NCBI GenBank assembly: GCA_011364925.1
Contig: RDOA01000027.1
Span: forward strand, 1 to 45,828
DNA: 45,828 nt
Reading direction: 5' to 3'
Source of the DNA: Promethearchaeota archaeon
GTDB lineage: Archaea; Asgardarchaeota; Lokiarchaeia; Sigyniarchaeales; SOKP01
The notes beneath the pieces are model-generated. The model was not told where the DNA came from. It did not search any database and saw only the letters and a list, made by a program, of their open reading frames with translations. Shown here piece by piece: positions 31,902-42,723 of the stretch (within the stretch, counting starts at the first letter, position 1; every line of letters begins with the position of its first letter). Position numbers and translations under genes: made by a program.

Positions 31902-32681
31902 TTACCTATTTTTTTCAGTTAAATACTTAGAAAAAATGTTCATATAAAGACACTCTTCTGGTGGCATTTCAGGAGTAAATATTGGTTCTTCAGTAAATTC
32001 TACATTGCTATCCCTAATAATTACGACAGGAGTTCTTTGATCTGTTTCACTAAGTAAAAATTGTGCAGCACTCGCCAAATCATCCGCTATTGCTCTCATT
32101 GTAATTTCCATAGGACGATTGAATAGATCAGGATATCCTATTAAATTTTCTATTGGTTCAAATCCTGCAGTTGCGATGGCAATACCTATTGTTCCCTTCC
32201 TTAAAGGCTGGACTCTTGAATCTGCAATAATTAAACCTATTTTTTCGAGATTATATCTCTTTTTCAAGCTTTCCCGATATTCCCAAACTATTTTCTTTAA
32301 ATTGTTCGGAAGTAAAACGACATTATTAGGTCCAGCATTAGATTGATCGATGCCTGCGTTTGCAATCAAAAAGTCATTAACTTTAGCTAAAATCACATGC
32401 CTCATTCCACCCAATATCATTGAAGATTCTCTTAAAATGAGTTCTACATATCTCTCATCCATATCAAATTTTTTAGAGAGTGATTTTGCTTCTGAAGAAA
32501 TGTTTTTTACGTCTGATAAATTCACTACTCTCCCTTGAGAGGTAGCTACGACTTTTTCGGCTATAACGACTATGTCTCCTTCTTTTAACGATTTTCCTTG
32601 GTCTTCTAAAACAGAAATAATTATATCAAGAAGTGGGTCTCCTTTTTTTATCAGCGGAAGTTTTAACGCAAATAACTCCAT
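31902..32681 (-). CDS. CofE-family gamma-glutamyl ligase
   Basis: LPLIKKGD, AEKVV, ANAGIDQSN, DSR..PLR.G, DLF, ADDLA; ATG 32681 preferred to avoid overlap with folP. Confidence 0.85.
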   Translation of the reverse strand: MELFALKLPLIKKGDPLLDIIISVLEDQGKSLKEGDIVVIAEKVVATSQGRVVNLSDVKNISSEAKSLSKKFDMDERYVELILRESSMILGGMRHVILAKVNDFLIANAGIDQSNAGPNNVVLLPNNLKKIVWEYRESLKKRYNLEKIGLIIADSRVQPLRKGTIGIAIATAGFEPIENLIGYPDLFNRPMEITMRAIADDLASAAQFLLSETDQRTPVVIIRDSNVEFTEEPIFTPEMPPEECLYMNIFSKYLTEKNR

Positions 32682-32736
32682 TATAATAAAAAGAATTAAA
32701 CTTATTTGATATACTTTTTTTAAAATATCGTAAATC

Positions 32737-33600
32737 ATGAATGGAATTTATGCAAAATTCTTCGATCACCTAGAAATTGGAGATAATTATCCTACTATCG
32801 TTATGGGTGTACTAAATTTAAGTCCAGAGTCTTTCTACAAGGGTTCTATCTACGACAATAAGAAAAAAATAGATTTCGCCACTACGGAAATGATCGGAAA
32901 TGGTGCAACGATCCTGGACCTTGGGGCTAGATCAACCGCTCCTTGGTCGGAAAAAATTACAATTGATGAAGAAATTAAAAGAATGGAATCAGCAGTGAAA
33001 ATTGTATGTAATATTATCCCAGATAATATCATTCTATCTATTGATACTCAATATAGGAGAGTAGCTCAAAGAGCGTTGGAGATATCAAACGAATTTATGA
33101 AAAAAATCTTAATAAATGATGTAAGTTGTCTGAAAACCGACCCAGAATTAGGTGATTTTGTCGTGGAAAACGATTTACCAATCGTGCTTATGGCTTCAAA
33201 AAAAGTTCCAGGAGATTTATTAACGACTTCTGAAATTTTATCTGAATTTAACATAACATTTGAATTATTAGAGCATAACGGTTATGACCTAAAAAAAATT
33301 ATTATCGATCCTGGAATAGGTAGATGGATTGATGAGAAGACGCCTGAATTTGACTTAAAGATTTTAGGAAATTTAAATAAACTTCGCTCTCTAAATAAAC
33401 CAATATTAGTAGCGATATCCAGAAAATCCTTCATAGGGGCTACATTAAATATTGCAGAACCAGAAAAAAGACTGAATGGAACGCTCTCAGCGACAGCCAT
33501 AGCAGTATATAAAGGAGCACATATAGTTCGAACTCATGATGTAAATCAACAATTAATGGAAATTATAAAAATTGCTGAGGAGATTAGAAAAAACCAATAG
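32737..33600 (+). CDS. folP: Dihydropteroate synthase
   Basis: MGVLNLSPESF, SIDT, INDVS, DPGIG, SRKSFIG, RTHDV. Confidence 0.9.
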   Translation: MNGIYAKFFDHLEIGDNYPTIVMGVLNLSPESFYKGSIYDNKKKIDFATTEMIGNGATILDLGARSTAPWSEKITIDEEIKRMESAVKIVCNIIPDNIILSIDTQYRRVAQRALEISNEFMKKILINDVSCLKTDPELGDFVVENDLPIVLMASKKVPGDLLTTSEILSEFNITFELLEHNGYDLKKIIIDPGIGRWIDEKTPEFDLKILGNLNKLRSLNKPILVAISRKSFIGATLNIAEPEKRLNGTLSATAIAVYKGAHIVRTHDVNQQLMEIIKIAEEIRKNQ

Positions 33601-33882: not shown

Positions 33883-35947
33883 ATGTCTGAGGATAAGAAT
33901 AATTCTTACGATGCCGATGACATCCAAGTACTAAAGGGCCTGGACGGCGTAAACTAATTTATAATTCATGAATAGTAGCCAAAGGCGCAGGCCTGCTATG
34001 TATATTGGGGATCAAGGCAAAAAAGGGCTCCATCATTTAATTTATGAAGTTCTGGATAATGCCGTTGATGAAGCAATTGGTGGATTTGCCAATGAAATCA
34101 AGGTTACTCTTTTTAAGGACAATTCTGTACAAATTTACGATAATGGACGGGGGATACCTATTGATACACATCCAGAATTTAACAAACCAGCCCTTGAAGT
34201 AATCATGGAGCATTTACATTCTGGAGGTAAATTCGATAACAAGAGTTATAAAATTTCTGGGGGACTACATGGTGTTGGACTTTCCGTTGTCAATGCATTA
34301 ACAGAATGGATGGATGTAGAAATTTGCAGAGATGGGTTGTTGTATAAACAAAGATTCTCTAGAGGGAAAAAAGAGACAGAACCAGAAATAACTAAGAGTA
34401 ATAGTAAAGAAACCTACACAAAGATTACATTTTATCCAGATGACGAGATATTTGAATTTGAAAACAATGAGGAGATTTTTAGTCCTTCGTCAATTTCTAG
34501 TAGAATGCGAGAGTTAGCTTTCCTTACTCCTCAAGCTCGATTTGAACTACATAATAAAATCATAGACGAAAAAGAGGAGTTTTATTATGAAGGTGGACTC
34601 AAAGAATTTATTGCGTATTTAAACAAAGATAGACAACCCCTTCATAATGATATTATTTACATAAGTGATTCTGCTGAAGATGAAGATGGTGCCCTTATCT
34701 ATTGTGATTTAGCGATGCAGTATAATACGACTTATCAAACGAATATTCAAACCTACGCTAACACGATTAATACCATAGAGGGAGGCACTCATCTTACGGG
34801 CTTTAAATCGGCTCTTACAAGGACATTCAATTCTTATATTGAAAATTTCATGGATAAAAAGAACAAAGAACATGTTTTATCAGGTCCTGATACAAGGGAA
34901 GGATTATCTGCTGTGCTTTCTATTAAGCTGCCAAATCCACAATTCGAAAGTCAAACGAAAATAAAACTCGGTAATCCTGAAGTTAGGCAAGTTGTAAGTC
35001 AAATTGTCACAGAGAAATTGGCTCAATACTTAGAAGAACACCCTGAGAATGCTAAAAAAATAGTGATGAAAACAATTAACGCTAAATTAGCAAGAGAAGC
35101 CGCCCAAAAAGCACGGTCATTAATTCGTAGAAAATCGATTCTGGATGGTGCTAGAATGCCCGGAAAGCTAGCCGACTGTTCCTCGAATGATCCAAGAGAG
35201 TGTGAAATTTTCATAGTTGAAGGCAATTCTGCAGGTGGATCCGCAAAACAGGGGAGGGATAGAGCTTATCAAGCGATTTTGCCTTTAAGGGGTAAAATTT
35301 TAAATGTAGAAAAAGCACGAATGGATAAAATACTGCAAAATAATGAAATCCAATCAATTATTAAAGCCTTGGGAGTAGGAATTCAAGAATTCTACGATGT
35401 TAACGGTGATGAAAATGGTAATGGAGAGGAAGAAAATGCTGATGATGCCGAAGACCTAGAATCTGAATTTGATTTAACCAAGCTGAGATACCATAAAACG
35501 GTTATTATGTGCGATAGTGACATAGATGGGCACCACATCGAAACTCTTCTATTAACGTTTTTCTTTCGATACATGCGGCCATTAATTGATGAGGGTCATT
35601 TGTATCTTGCAGTTCCACCCCTATATAAAGTTTCGTATAAAAAAGATAAATTTTATGTCCTTTCAGATAAAGAGAAAGAAGAACAAATTAAAGAACTGAA
35701 GGAAAAGTATAAATTAAAAAATACTGATACAATTAAGATTCAGCGGTACAAAGGATTGGGTGAGATGAACCCCGATGAACTATACCAAACTACGATGAAT
35801 CGAGAAACTAGAACCTTAAAGAAGGTAACATATGAAGATTATATCGAAAATGATTTAATCTTTACAAAATTGATGGGAAGAGAGGTATTATCTCGTAAAA
35901 AGTATATATTCTCCAATTTTGATAAGGCAACAGAATTGGATATTTAA
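33883..35947 (+). CDS. gyrB: DNA gyrase subunit B, split by a 31-nt intron: join(33883..33951,33983..35947), 677 aa
   Basis: Exon 1 MSEDKNNSYDADDIQVLKGLDGV joins RRRPAMYIG; EVLDNAVDE, GGLHGVG, PLRGKILN, QRYKGLGEM. Confidence 0.93.
33952..33982 (+). other. Putative BHB intron in gyrB (31 nt)
   Basis: In-frame TAA plus frameshift; bulges UA|A and AA|A, central GGCG/AGCC (one mismatch), exon stem GGCCUG/CAGGCC. Confidence 0.82.
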
Positions 35948-38894: not shown

Positions 38895-39824
38895 ATGAAA
38901 ACAGAGTTTAATATCGGTTTCGATTGTTCTCATCAGAACAAGTTAAGTATCGAGGATCCAGGCTTTAATGATTTTATAGAATATCTCTTCAACTCGGATT
39001 TAAAGTTGGGAAAAATCGAAGCAGGAATCACATATGAAAAGTTGTCAGACTATAACGTTTTCATAATAGGAGTTCCTTTTGCTGGATCTTATATTACCGT
39101 CGAAGAAATCGACAGTTTGACCCAATACGTGAAAGATGGCGGGTCGCTTCTCATCATTAATGATAAGGGGGGAGAGTTCGAAAATAAGAATAATTTAAAT
39201 GAGCTAACGAAAATTTTTGGTATTAAATTCAATCCAGATCAGCTCTTTGATAACGATCATTTTTCTAAGGATATTTCTCGCCCGATAATTAAAGATTTTA
39301 AAAAACATTTTATAACTCGTGATCTTACCCAAATTATTCACTCTAACGGATGTACTATCCAAATCGATAAATCAGTAGAAACTGAAGATATAGATGTGTC
39401 AGCAATCGCGTTCTCCTCTGAGGATTCCGCTTGGCACAAAATATTTAATGGGGAAGTATGGTTAGATGAACCTGTAGAAAAAGCTCCCGTTATCGCTATC
39501 AGTCATTACGGTATGGGAAAAGTGGTAGCTATCGGAAATTTGTCTCTTTTTTCAGGATTTCATGCGTTATACGGTATACAAGCTGCTGATAATTTTAGGT
39601 TGATTTCTAATATCATAGCTTGGCTTATGAATAAAGCCCACTCCAAGGAAGCACAGTTATCTCAGCCAATTTTTATCACTATTCCTGTTGAACAAGATTT
39701 ATACTATTGGATGAAAGAAAAACTAGATGAAGAACGCTGGCAGAATGTTGAAGAAATCATAAACTTTGCTCTAAAAGTAGTTAAATTTAGAATGAGAAAG
39801 CAAGAAAGCCTAGAAGATTTATAG
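38895..39824 (+). CDS. GIFT/DUF4350-like (class I GATase-like fold) protein
   Basis: FDCSH.N, YVKDGGSLL, NLNELTKIFGI, GMGKVVAIG, DNFRLISNIIAWL pattern of GldG/IFT52-type domains. Confidence 0.6.
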   Translation: MKTEFNIGFDCSHQNKLSIEDPGFNDFIEYLFNSDLKLGKIEAGITYEKLSDYNVFIIGVPFAGSYITVEEIDSLTQYVKDGGSLLIINDKGGEFENKNNLNELTKIFGIKFNPDQLFDNDHFSKDISRPIIKDFKKHFITRDLTQIIHSNGCTIQIDKSVETEDIDVSAIAFSSEDSAWHKIFNGEVWLDEPVEKAPVIAISHYGMGKVVAIGNLSLFSGFHALYGIQAADNFRLISNIIAWLMNKAHSKEAQLSQPIFITIPVEQDLYYWMKEKLDEERWQNVEEIINFALKVVKFRMRKQESLEDL

Positions 39825-39844
39825 GGAATATTAATTAGATAATT

Positions 39845-40408
39845 TTGAAAAATAAGGTTTTGAGTATGATTAAAACAGAAAAAGAAGAAATTTTAATTGG
39901 TTTGCTATCGGATACACACATTCCAGCAAGAACACATAGCATGCCTGATAGAGTGCTTGAGGATTTTAAAAATAGAAAGGTCGATTATGTGTTTCATTTA
40001 GGAGATTTCACTTCTTTTGAGGTATATGAGAGATTAATAGAAGCATTCGGGAGAGATAAAGTAGTCGCGGTTAAAGGAAACATGGATTTTGACTCCAAAA
40101 TAAAAAATTCCCTGCCCGATACTTTGGAGTTTAAGATTTACGAACATCATGTTCTGATGCTCCACGGAATGGGTGGTCCAAACATGATAATAAGAAGATT
40201 GATTAAAAACTTAGACTTGCTCAATTCAAATTACGATCTAATAATCTTTGGGCATACACATAAACCAGTTAACGAAAAACATAACGGTATTCTATTTTTT
40301 AATCCCGGAACTACAACTCCTATAGATAATAAACTTACCGTAATAAGTTCTTACGGCTATCTTAGAATTTCAAAAAATAAGATTGAACCTGAAATTATAT
40401 ATCTTTAA
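39845..40408 (+). CDS. YfcE/MJ0936/Vps29-like metallophosphoesterase
   Basis: SDTH, HLGD, GNMD, HG, GHTH, NPG. Confidence 0.88.
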   Translation: MKNKVLSMIKTEKEEILIGLLSDTHIPARTHSMPDRVLEDFKNRKVDYVFHLGDFTSFEVYERLIEAFGRDKVVAVKGNMDFDSKIKNSLPDTLEFKIYEHHVLMLHGMGGPNMIIRRLIKNLDLLNSNYDLIIFGHTHKPVNEKHNGILFFNPGTTTPIDNKLTVISSYGYLRISKNKIEPEIIYL

Positions 40409-40438
40409 ATTATCTAAAATAAGTAAGATGGTTGAAAA

Positions 40439-41174
40439 TTAGAAACTTTCCATTGTTGTACCCGATAATTTCTTATAATGATTAAGCACAGCTTGTCGAG
40501 CTGCGTAGACAAAAGCTCTTTTCACGTTTACCCCCGTTATCGCTATGGTTTCATATATTAAGCAGTGATTAAGCTTGGCGGTGTCGAGCACCTGTCGTAA
40601 CTTCGATATCTCTATTATACCTTCTAAATCTCTTTTATTTGCTAAAACAACGATTGGAACCTCAGGTGGATCGAAAGGTTTCGGTGGAATTAGCTTATCT
40701 CCGTAAAACTTAAGCAGTTCCTTGAGAGACCAGATGTTCTTGAGTAGTTAATCCCTAATTATTAACTAATTCTCCCCATTGGTCAATCAAAGAATCCCAT
40801 GTGAATATTACCGCGTCTGTACCTTTAAGAACCGTTTGGCGCTGGAATTTGTGGCGTCTCTGACCGGCAACTGTCTGTATAGTTTCTCGAGACGAGAAAT
40901 CTAATATACCTGAAATACCACGTTAGATACGCGTGCTACAACCCGGTCAAAGAATAATGTTCGGCCCGTTGGGTCTTGGATTTGCTGCATCTAGTGAGAA
41001 ACACCAAAATAGTAATTTCATATCACCTGAAGCAAGTCCCTTTATAAATAACAATCGAAAAGATTATTATTCTTTATTGTAGACCCACTCAAGTGCCGTA
41101 GTTTTTCCGCCTAAACTTGGTCCGTAAAAGCAAATTTTAAAGACTAAGGTTCCATCGCCCCTACGCGATGGCAT
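40439..41174 (-). CDS. MglA-family small GTPase, 5 exons: complement(join 41174-41072, 41041-41022, 40990-40904, 40874-40770, 40738-40439), 204 aa
   Basis: Spliced product has G1 YGPSLGGKTT, GRTLFFD, YTVAGQ, LANKRD, ETIA; SD GGAGGTGA upstream; absent from the ORF track. Confidence 0.9.
40739..40769 (-). other. Putative BHB intron 4 of the GTPase (31 nt)
   Basis: In-frame TAG plus frameshift; central GGAG/CUCA (one mismatch), bulges AA|U and AG|A, stem UAGUUAAU/AUUAACUA. Confidence 0.85.
40875..40903 (-). other. Putative BHB intron 3 of the GTPase (29 nt)
   Basis: In-frame TAG; central GUAU/AUAC, bulges AU|U and AG|A, stem UUUCUCG/CGAGAAA. Confidence 0.88.
40991..41021 (-). other. Putative BHB intron 2 of the GTPase (31 nt)
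   Basis: Frameshifting; central GGUG/CACU, bulges AU|A and AG|A. Confidence 0.82.
41042..41071 (-). other. Putative BHB intron 1 of the GTPase (30 nt)
   Basis: In-frame TAA TAA; central AUAA/UUAU, bulges AG|A and AA|A, 9-bp intron stem. Confidence 0.82.
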
Positions 41175-41181
41175 TCAAGTT

Positions 41182-41189
41182 TCACCTCC
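41182..41189 (-). promoter_or_regulatory. Shine-Dalgarno site of the GTPase gene
   Basis: GGAGGTGA 7 nt upstream of ATG 41174. Confidence 0.7.
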
Positions 41190-41346
41190 AATATTCTTAA
41201 TTGTATTCATATCTAAATTAACCATTATCATAATTATATCATACTTAATTAAATATATTAAATGAATAAAACTATAGTAATTTAAAAATATGTTTTCCAA
41301 AAAAAATACGCAATGGATTAACATATAAACATATCAAAATAGGAAT

Positions 41347-42723
41347 TTAGTCGCCTAAAGAATTTGAACTACGCTTCCTACTAAGACTAAATAAATAACT
41401 ATCCATCATTGAACGAAAAACAATAGGGCTTAAGTTCAATGCATATACTAATTTATCTGGAATGATTTTTCCATCTTCAAGATAGCTACTTAAATCTGAT
41501 TGTATATAAACCTTGTTCTTTATCTCAAACAATGATTTTACATCATCTAAGAGCTTTTTATTTGACGAATAAATCCTACCTTGATTACTGCCAATATAGG
41601 TACCATCACCATCATAAAAGCCCAAAAGCCACGCATGAGCCATGCGGCCTGAGTGTGTAGTAAACCATTGGATACTATTAAACCTTGCTTCCTTCTTAGC
41701 GTTTATAATAAATGACTTGATGACCTGGGGTACACCGATTTCCCCTGATTTTAAACCATGAAAATCAAGACTCTTTAAACTTTCTGCTATTTGACTAGAA
41801 GAAAACCTTATCTTTGAGGTCCTACCAGTTCGAACCTTACCTTTATAAGTCCAAAATCTCCTCTGCTGAGTAATTCGAGAAGAATCTAAACCCATGGAAT
41901 AACAAAAGTGTCTAATAATCACCTCATCTTTAATTGCTAATTCTATCGAGATTCTTGGTCGTGTTGATGACAAGCTTCCGTCTGCAGACAAGAAACCTAG
42001 CCAATATGCTTTAAATATCAAATTAATTTCATTAAAGAAATTTTTGCGCTTTATCGAATAGTCCTTTTCATGCCAATAATGTAAATCTGGATTATGCAAT
42101 TTGTATCGATTTATGTTCTCCAGAAGATTCATTGCATTACTTCTAAAAATGTTTTTTAAAGATTTCTTAAATTCTTCTAAACGTTCTAAAGTAAACTTAT
42201 AATCTGGATTATACCAACGCTTTGACTGTGGATTATTAATTGTATCCAATACCCGATGTATAAAATCTTTATCCCCTGCCAATATCAAGCTAAGTTCTTC
42301 ATTAGTAATAGCTACTTCGCCAGAAATTCTTCCTAATTCATTTTCAAGCTTTTCAATGAATTTTAGAGTACTCAAACCAGAATTAAGATTCTTATATTCT
42401 TGGATAATATCAATACAGCATACAACTTTAGCACCGAAGTTCCCTGCTAAATTCTTCTCAAGGAGACCCAGACTAGTCTCTGTATCTTCAAACCTGAATT
42501 CTGGATTGTAGTCTCTATTTTTTGAATTATTTATTTTATTTTTAACCCTTGCTATGTAATGAAAATTACTACCTCTCCATAATCTTGAAAGATCTCGATC
42601 AGAAAAACGCTTTATACGATCTGGGAAGATTTCAGCTAGGATTTCAGAATGAACGCGTAGTTCTTGACGCAAATCTTCAATTAAATCTAAAGTTGAATAG
42701 ACGGTATCATTAGTATAAGTCAT
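41347..42723 (-). CDS. Free-standing double-motif LAGLIDADG endonuclease-like protein
   Basis: AYWLGFLSADG and AWLLGFYDGDG motifs; about 220-aa N-terminal extension. Confidence 0.8.
   Translation of the reverse strand: MTYTNDTVYSTLDLIEDLRQELRVHSEILAEIFPDRIKRFSDRDLSRLWRGSNFHYIARVKNKINNSKNRDYNPEFRFEDTETSLGLLEKNLAGNFGAKVVCCIDIIQEYKNLNSGLSTLKFIEKLENELGRISGEVAITNEELSLILAGDKDFIHRVLDTINNPQSKRWYNPDYKFTLERLEEFKKSLKNIFRSNAMNLLENINRYKLHNPDLHYWHEKDYSIKRKNFFNEINLIFKAYWLGFLSADGSLSSTRPRISIELAIKDEVIIRHFCYSMGLDSSRITQQRRFWTYKGKVRTGRTSKIRFSSSQIAESLKSLDFHGLKSGEIGVPQVIKSFIINAKKEARFNSIQWFTTHSGRMAHAWLLGFYDGDGTYIGSNQGRIYSSNKKLLDDVKSLFEIKNKVYIQSDLSSYLEDGKIIPDKLVYALNLSPIVFRSMMDSYLFSLSRKRSSNSLGD

Follow-up and report, generated by a model that had tools for sequence, protein, structure and literature searches.

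The window, i.e. the whole stretch of 45,828 nucleotides that was analysed, carries on its minus strand a small GTPase gene (41174-40439, 736 nt) that is split by four inserts of 30, 31, 29 and 31 nt, in order from 5' to 3'. Without these 121 nt, 615 nt are left, which encode 204 aa and a stop. An earlier note on this DNA had proposed such a hidden five-exon gene and was right to do so, as each of the four inserts is a clean gap in the DNA alignment with intron-free orthologs (204-206 aa). The spliced product that it gave and both of its junction peptides are correct, the Shine-Dalgarno sequence that it had called strong is GGAGGTG, and the exons, which it had described as having no other lesions, contain no further stop or frameshift when checked against the orthologs. 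Directly upstream lies a gene for a LAGLIDADG protein. The genome of the window is called G000, and G008, G005, G018, G053 and similar names denote relatives in the same genus. The features are as follows, with the intron boundaries in bulge-helix-bulge (BHB) register:

41347-42723, minus strand: predicted gene for a free-standing, monomeric two-motif LAGLIDADG endonuclease, 458 aa, directly upstream of the GTPase gene
41183-41189, minus strand: Shine-Dalgarno sequence GGAGGTG, 8 nt upstream of the ATG
41072-41174, minus strand: exon 1, 103 nt, with the start codon and the G1 P-loop GPSLGGKT
41042-41071, minus strand: predicted BHB intron 1, 30 nt, an in-frame insert that contains two TAA; inner stem 9 bp, central helix ATAA/TTAT
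41022-41041, minus strand: exon 2, 20 nt
40991-41021, minus strand: predicted BHB intron 2, 31 nt; central helix GGTG/CACT; site also filled in G005 and L231
40904-40990, minus strand: exon 3, 87 nt, with switch I and RTLFFD
40875-40903, minus strand: predicted BHB intron 3, 29 nt; central helix GTAT/ATAC; immediately upstream of G3 TVAGQ
40770-40874, minus strand: exon 4, 105 nt, with G3 TVAGQ
40739-40769, minus strand: predicted BHB intron 4, 31 nt, after codon 105; central helix 3 bp and an outer G-A mismatch, inner stem 8 bp
40439-40738, minus strand: exon 5, 300 nt, with G4 NKRD and the stop; 93% identical to the G008 ortholog
40727-40785, minus strand: presumed target region of the endonuclease, approximately codons 100-109, split by intron 4; deduced from co-occurrence in G018 and G005

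The spliced protein is about 95% identical to that of G008. Relatives of the same genus have one ortholog each, mostly as an open frame of 204-206 aa, and database searches, queried with the G008 ortholog or with exon 5, place the protein in an orthologous cluster, some members of which bear the labels Lokiarchaeota and Promethearchaeota; we regard the host as an Asgard archaeon of the Loki type. Among solved structures MglA proteins match best, with an E value of 1e-22 compared to 4e-8 for Rab7, and in the alignment of the spliced product the G1 loop, the RTLFFD motif with its arginine, TVAGQ and NKRD are all in register with MglA, with TVxGQ replacing DxxGQ as in that family, so the MglA-like identity suggested before holds. 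No MglB roadblock gene is adjacent, and the locus is thus not an MglA-MglB module; the immediate neighbours of the GTPase gene are a YfcE phosphoesterase gene and the LAGLIDADG gene. The conserved genes that converge on it (38895-40408, plus strand) are an IFT52 GIFT-domain gene and that of the YfcE-type phosphoesterase. MglA-like GTPases are already known in Asgard archaea (10.1101/2024.02.28.582541), and the protein in itself is therefore ordinary. Against close orthologs the exons have a pN of about 0.06 and a pS of about 0.75, and are thus under strong purifying selection, which is seen along the long terminal branch; dN/dS (<0.02) is far below 1 and, because dS is saturated, an upper bound only. 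Two of the checks that had been proposed for the gene thus came out in its favour, i.e. the low dN/dS of the exons and the colinear alignment of the spliced product with intron-free orthologs. An assembly error can be excluded, because a contig from an independent study (X2) spans 40200-40930 and carries introns 3 and 4 with only one difference, and another contig (X1), possibly the source itself, spans all four introns with none.

We tried all registers around each gap for a BHB fit, and in all four inserts the register that preserves the ortholog sequence also pairs the last bases of the exon with the end of the insert, forming a central helix. Each of the four has the BHB geometry, with two 3-nt bulges and an inner hairpin, and a cut after the second base of the bulge restores the 204-aa frame; the central pairs number 4, 4, 4 and 3 in introns 1 to 4. 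In a generic BHB test, shuffled versions of each insert succeed in 0.4-2.1% of trials and random genomic 29-31-mers in 1.0%. Genus-wide, 36 distinct inserts of 27-34 nt with conserved flanks were gathered without any structure filter, and 33 of them pass the test, versus 5.4 expected; the insert lengths are tightly confined to 28-33 nt across the collected loci. When the whole transcript is folded, the central helix has a probability of about 0.9 in intron 2, 0.4-0.7 in intron 3 and 0.85 in intron 4. The helix of intron 1 (about 0.02) is predicted to form rarely, because it consists of A-U pairs only and competes with a longer inner stem. Although exon 2 has a mere 20 nt, motifs 1 and 2 share none of the bases that they require. 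Group I, group II and spliceosomal introns are excluded by the length of 29-31 nt, the lack of a GT start and the lack of any Rfam match in 39500-42000.

The BHB is the substrate of the archaeal splicing endonuclease (PMC2738675), and the genome encodes a catalytic EndA subunit with the Tyr, His and Lys motifs, a structural EndA subunit and RtcB; the two-subunit type of EndA is said to cut non-canonical introns (PMC5829648). Each insert would fold as a BHB together with its exon flanks, the two-subunit EndA would cut after the second bulge base, and RtcB would then join the exons. We are highly confident that the two enzymes splice the gene four times in this manner and give a 615-nt mRNA, although this is read from DNA. 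Without splicing, translation would yield a peptide of 35 aa only. This mechanism and the endonuclease next door are additions to what the earlier note contained.

Inserts of the same kind are found elsewhere in the genus. We compared 109 distinct orthologous genes for the GTPase; in nine of them there are 14 inserts, 29-32 nt long and all BHB-shaped, which occupy eight sites, and ten of these inserts belong to the eight alleles other than that of the window. All eight distinct insertion sites lie within codons 13-105 (p about 0.005, calculated by hand and ignoring conservation, and conservation is also slightly higher in the N-terminal half). On the tree, the intron-bearing alleles are dispersed over terminal branches whose sisters are intron-free. 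For the rest of the genome we used a splice-aware aligner without any structural assumption to compare about 1500 genes of G000, those for which 2.4 Mb of G008 provide an ortholog, and the resulting census is a lower bound, since de novo genome-wide BHB scans are too noisy for counting. Three genes of G000 stood out, each with a BHB insert: a 29-nt one that shifts the frame within the P-loop of aIF2-gamma, a gene present only once (C53:19149-19121, minus strand), a 30-nt one with a stop in a FAD-oxidase-like gene (C11:66682-66653, minus strand) and a 29-nt one in the T-arm of tRNA-Tyr (C41:839-867, plus strand), which is absent from G008. The reverse comparison gave one BHB intron in G008, of 28 nt, in an rpl11-like gene (C28, about 32185-33032); this intron is absent from G000. 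The baseline is thus 3 introns in about 3040 gene comparisons, or about 1 per 1000 genes. The window itself has a 31-nt BHB insert in gyrB (33952-33982, plus strand), the removal of which gives a 677-aa GyrB from the ATG at 33883 and restores the motif GLDGV-RRRPAMYIG across the junction. In tRNA-Gly and tRNA-Tyr of G000 there are introns of the same size class, with automatic placement being ambiguous for all but a few tRNA genes. A 30-nt intron in an alpha-mannosidase gene is present in four copies (L274, L275, L276 and L294), in which the CGTG/CACG helix is kept and the inner stem varies. Per gene, BHB introns are a rarity, and a gene with four of them is a hot spot. Of 37 genomes of the genus, about 11 have their aIF2-gamma gene interrupted at this position, and the EF-1alpha and EF-2 genes, which like that gene are single-copy and needed for translation, also hold such inserts in the genus. 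No other indirect evidence for splicing of these mRNAs is as strong as the inserts in genes of this kind.

The LAGLIDADG gene is inserted between a DEAD-helicase gene and the GTPase gene. It is absent at the intron-free loci, and in many of those the DEAD-helicase gene abuts the GTPase gene. The protein matches PF14528 with 35.2 bits, above the cut-off, both motif aspartates (248 and 373) are present in the alignment, and the model (pLDDT 87.8) has a fold that matches I-DmoI, I-AniI and PI-SceI. With two LAGLIDADG helices, the acidic residues and the family fold, the predicted product fits a monomeric homing endonuclease. Its closest homolog, with 52% identity, is in G018 at the same location. 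About 200 aa at the N-terminus (residues 1-205) are an extension, which seems to hold an internal repeat and gives no Pfam match above the cut-off. A sigma-70 promoter scan gave counts at chance level, with a model that is not apt for archaea. G000 has a second LAGLIDADG-domain ORF, which is located downstream of a thiolase-like gene, where a contig ends (C37:1-1061, minus strand), and tblastn finds no similarity between it and the enzyme of the window.

An endonuclease or a remnant of one lies upstream of three of the eight intron-bearing alleles and of none of the 75 intron-free ones (Fisher p 6e-4, which overstates the case as the genomes are kin), in a sample whose metagenome loci favour intron-free alleles because they were ranked by tblastn score; the other five intron-bearing alleles have no trace of it. 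The same tendency is found for EF-1alpha, where the enzyme adjoins 3/7 interrupted versus 0/32 intact genes, and for aIF2-gamma with 2/11 versus 0/26, four of the former and eight of the latter interruptions being deduced from match limits or stops instead of read directly. By a hand tally, about 17 of the 36 loci in the genus that have a homolog of the endonuclease flank a BHB intron. They involve nine host genes, and the introns are mostly at the end nearest the enzyme; compared to the baseline this is an excess of more than 100-fold. The host genes elsewhere are those of alpha-mannosidase, EF-1alpha, aIF2-gamma, EF-2, phosphofructokinase, a FwdA-like protein, a 4Fe-4S protein and one more, names that we presume to be right partly from recognised motifs. 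At about half of the endonuclease loci there is no intron nearby, and these may be cases of intronless homing. No endonuclease adjoins the gyrB insert or the aIF2-gamma and C11 introns of G000. Every endonuclease examined is situated outside the host gene. In four genomes (L267, L268, L270 and L271, in G014, G009, G042 and G056) homologs lie beside intron-free small GTPase genes, and several of these homologs are fused to leucine-rich repeats. The endonuclease family may favour targets that code for GTPases.

Two of the relatives give an indication of where the enzyme would cut. In the allele of G018 codon 102 is followed by an intron, at 9 nt from the position of intron 4, and that of G005 has a homologous intron at the G018 site (18/31 bases identical) together with the C-terminal remnant of an endonuclease upstream. 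The G005 allele is a mosaic: in codons 1-45, 26 informative sites follow G000 and 10 follow the sisters, whereas in codons 111-195, 62 follow the sisters and 2 follow G000. The promoter of G005 matches that of G000 at 89% identity, and there are similar 5' patches in G018 and G053. The 5' half also diverges more from the nearest sister in intron-bearing alleles than in intron-free ones (mean -0.069 versus -0.018, p 0.01). Such mosaic tracts are what would be expected when a break within the gene is repaired from an endonuclease-bearing donor. The foreign 5' tracts of G005, G018 and G053 have the form that co-conversion would give them and allow either direction of transfer.

The arrangement is that of collaborative homing, a free-standing endonuclease beside a gene with an ORF-less intron, and the introns have probably accumulated in this way, by cleavage, protection and co-conversion. 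The LAGLIDADG enzyme would cut intron-free alleles near codons 100-109, and an intron in the target site would shield the donor, as intron 4 would protect the allele of G000. Repair would copy everything between the endonuclease and the cut site, including the introns of the 5' half, and as co-conversion carries all that lies between enzyme and target the introns would become stacked there. They would then persist after the endonuclease has decayed.

There are other ways to explain the split gene. Short hairpin insertions could recently have inactivated it and left a pseudogene, as four lesions in 0.7 kb would suggest, and the gene may be dispensable in a genome with GTPase paralogs of 26-37% identity. 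The earlier note had argued against this, and we agree that it is very improbable: ordinary lesions are absent, the exons have been under purifying selection, each of the four inserts is complementary to the exon end in BHB register, and the same inserts occur in single-copy genes that translation needs. Even harder to believe is that the ribosome hops over the inserts by programmed bypassing of the T4 gene 60 type. The inserts do form hairpins with stops near their 5' ends, but the take-off and landing codons match in only one of the four, bypassing has no need for a 4-bp helix between exon and intron, and the same elements are found in tRNAs, which are not translated.

Other explanations accept splicing and differ in how the introns arrived. 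They could have come from tRNA-type introns that were reverse-spliced or copied into this mRNA or gene, with the endonuclease a co-resident of a recombination hot spot that does not drive their spread. The tRNA introns of the genome have the same size and layout, the endonuclease is missing from most intron-bearing alleles, and the four introns of the gene share no detected common sequence ancestor (the best p is about 0.04, of many pairs); a preprint moreover reports repeated gains of Asgard tRNA introns with no general route of arrival, mobile elements included (10.64898/2026.10.13.758758). Reverse splicing alone does however not explain the excess of introns beside endonuclease genes in nine host genes, or the remnant in G005 and the foreign tracts that enter the gene from the endonuclease side, and we find it rather unlikely as the full account, although it may be responsible for the first origin of each intron. 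Alternatively, deletions in larger BHB introns that once encoded the endonuclease, like those in crenarchaeal rRNA genes, could have left the mini-introns behind; this route is known for rRNA introns and has been proposed for cbf5 (PMC2738675, PMC4496867). It is improbable here, with no long ORF-bearing insert among the 109 orthologous genes, lengths kept to 28-33 nt and all examined endonucleases outside the host gene. We thus consider it very likely that the locus is a functional five-exon gene for an MglA-like GTPase, with introns that are spliced by the host and have probably been spread by collaborative homing.

We also lean, with less confidence, towards a more general statement, namely that mRNA splicing by the tRNA machinery is routine in Lokiarchaeia, with several events per gene, and that a family of free-standing LAGLIDADG enzymes ratchets host-spliced mini-introns into conserved genes, those of P-loop GTPases above all, through recurrent collaborative homing. 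If it is true, the five-exon gene and the introns in aIF2-gamma, EF-1alpha, EF-2 and gyrB would make mRNA splicing routine in Asgard archaea, it would raise the question of how splicing fits with translation, and gene catalogues of Asgard archaea would miss or split conserved genes. Prokaryotes closely related to the eukaryotes would then have a working route to protein genes of several exons, with neither spliceosome nor ribozyme; the finding does not show any ancestry of spliceosomal introns. The 2026 preprint on Asgard introns deals with tRNAs only and calls the spread of BHB introns the central open problem (10.64898/2026.10.13.758758), to which the link with the endonuclease is a testable answer. 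In our literature search, subscription papers aside, there was no primary report of coding-sequence BHB introns in Asgard archaea, nor any paper pairing such introns with free-standing endonucleases.

What is particular to this locus is the combination of four introns in 615 nt with an intact enzyme alongside. The GTPase shares G1, RTLFFD, TVxGQ and NKRD with MglA of Myxococcus and Thermus (PDB 5ymx and 3t12), its best PDB matches, and differs from them in having no neighbouring roadblock (MglB) gene. For a spliced intron within an archaeal coding sequence, the pre-mRNA of cbf5 in Crenarchaeota (Watanabe 2002; Yokobori 2009, PMC2738675) is the only case in the literature that we searched; as of 2020 the reported mRNA cases were cbf5 and Haloferax HVO_1309, the second one, where the BHB is in the 5' UTR (PMC7714728). 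The cbf5 intron is, like those described here, a short, ORF-less BHB in coding sequence that is removed by EndA (16-44 nt there, 29-31 nt here). It is however one ancient intron in one gene, and its splicing has been demonstrated, whereas here there are four introns in a 615-nt gene and eight sites among the relatives, patchy on the tree, in Asgard archaea, linked to an endonuclease and with splicing read from DNA. The BHB introns of 16S rRNA in Thermoproteales, with LAGLIDADG enzymes and co-converted hairpin introns such as Pog.S1213 and S1205 (PMC4496867), likewise include introns shorter than 50 nt that have spread through co-conversion with a LAGLIDADG, and several are stacked in one gene, but the enzyme is encoded in an intron and the host is an rRNA, whereas here the enzyme is free-standing and the host an mRNA. 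The collaborative homing of cyanophage psbA, with a free-standing endonuclease plus a group I intron that has no ORF (Zeng, Bonocora, Shub 2009, reviewed in PMC3984707), has in common with the present locus that the endonuclease is free-standing by a conserved gene and that an ORF-less intron sits in the presumed target; the difference is that the gene here is a chromosomal one of an archaeon, the intron a host-spliced BHB of 30 nt instead of a ribozyme, and the enzyme a LAGLIDADG protein with predicted cleavage.
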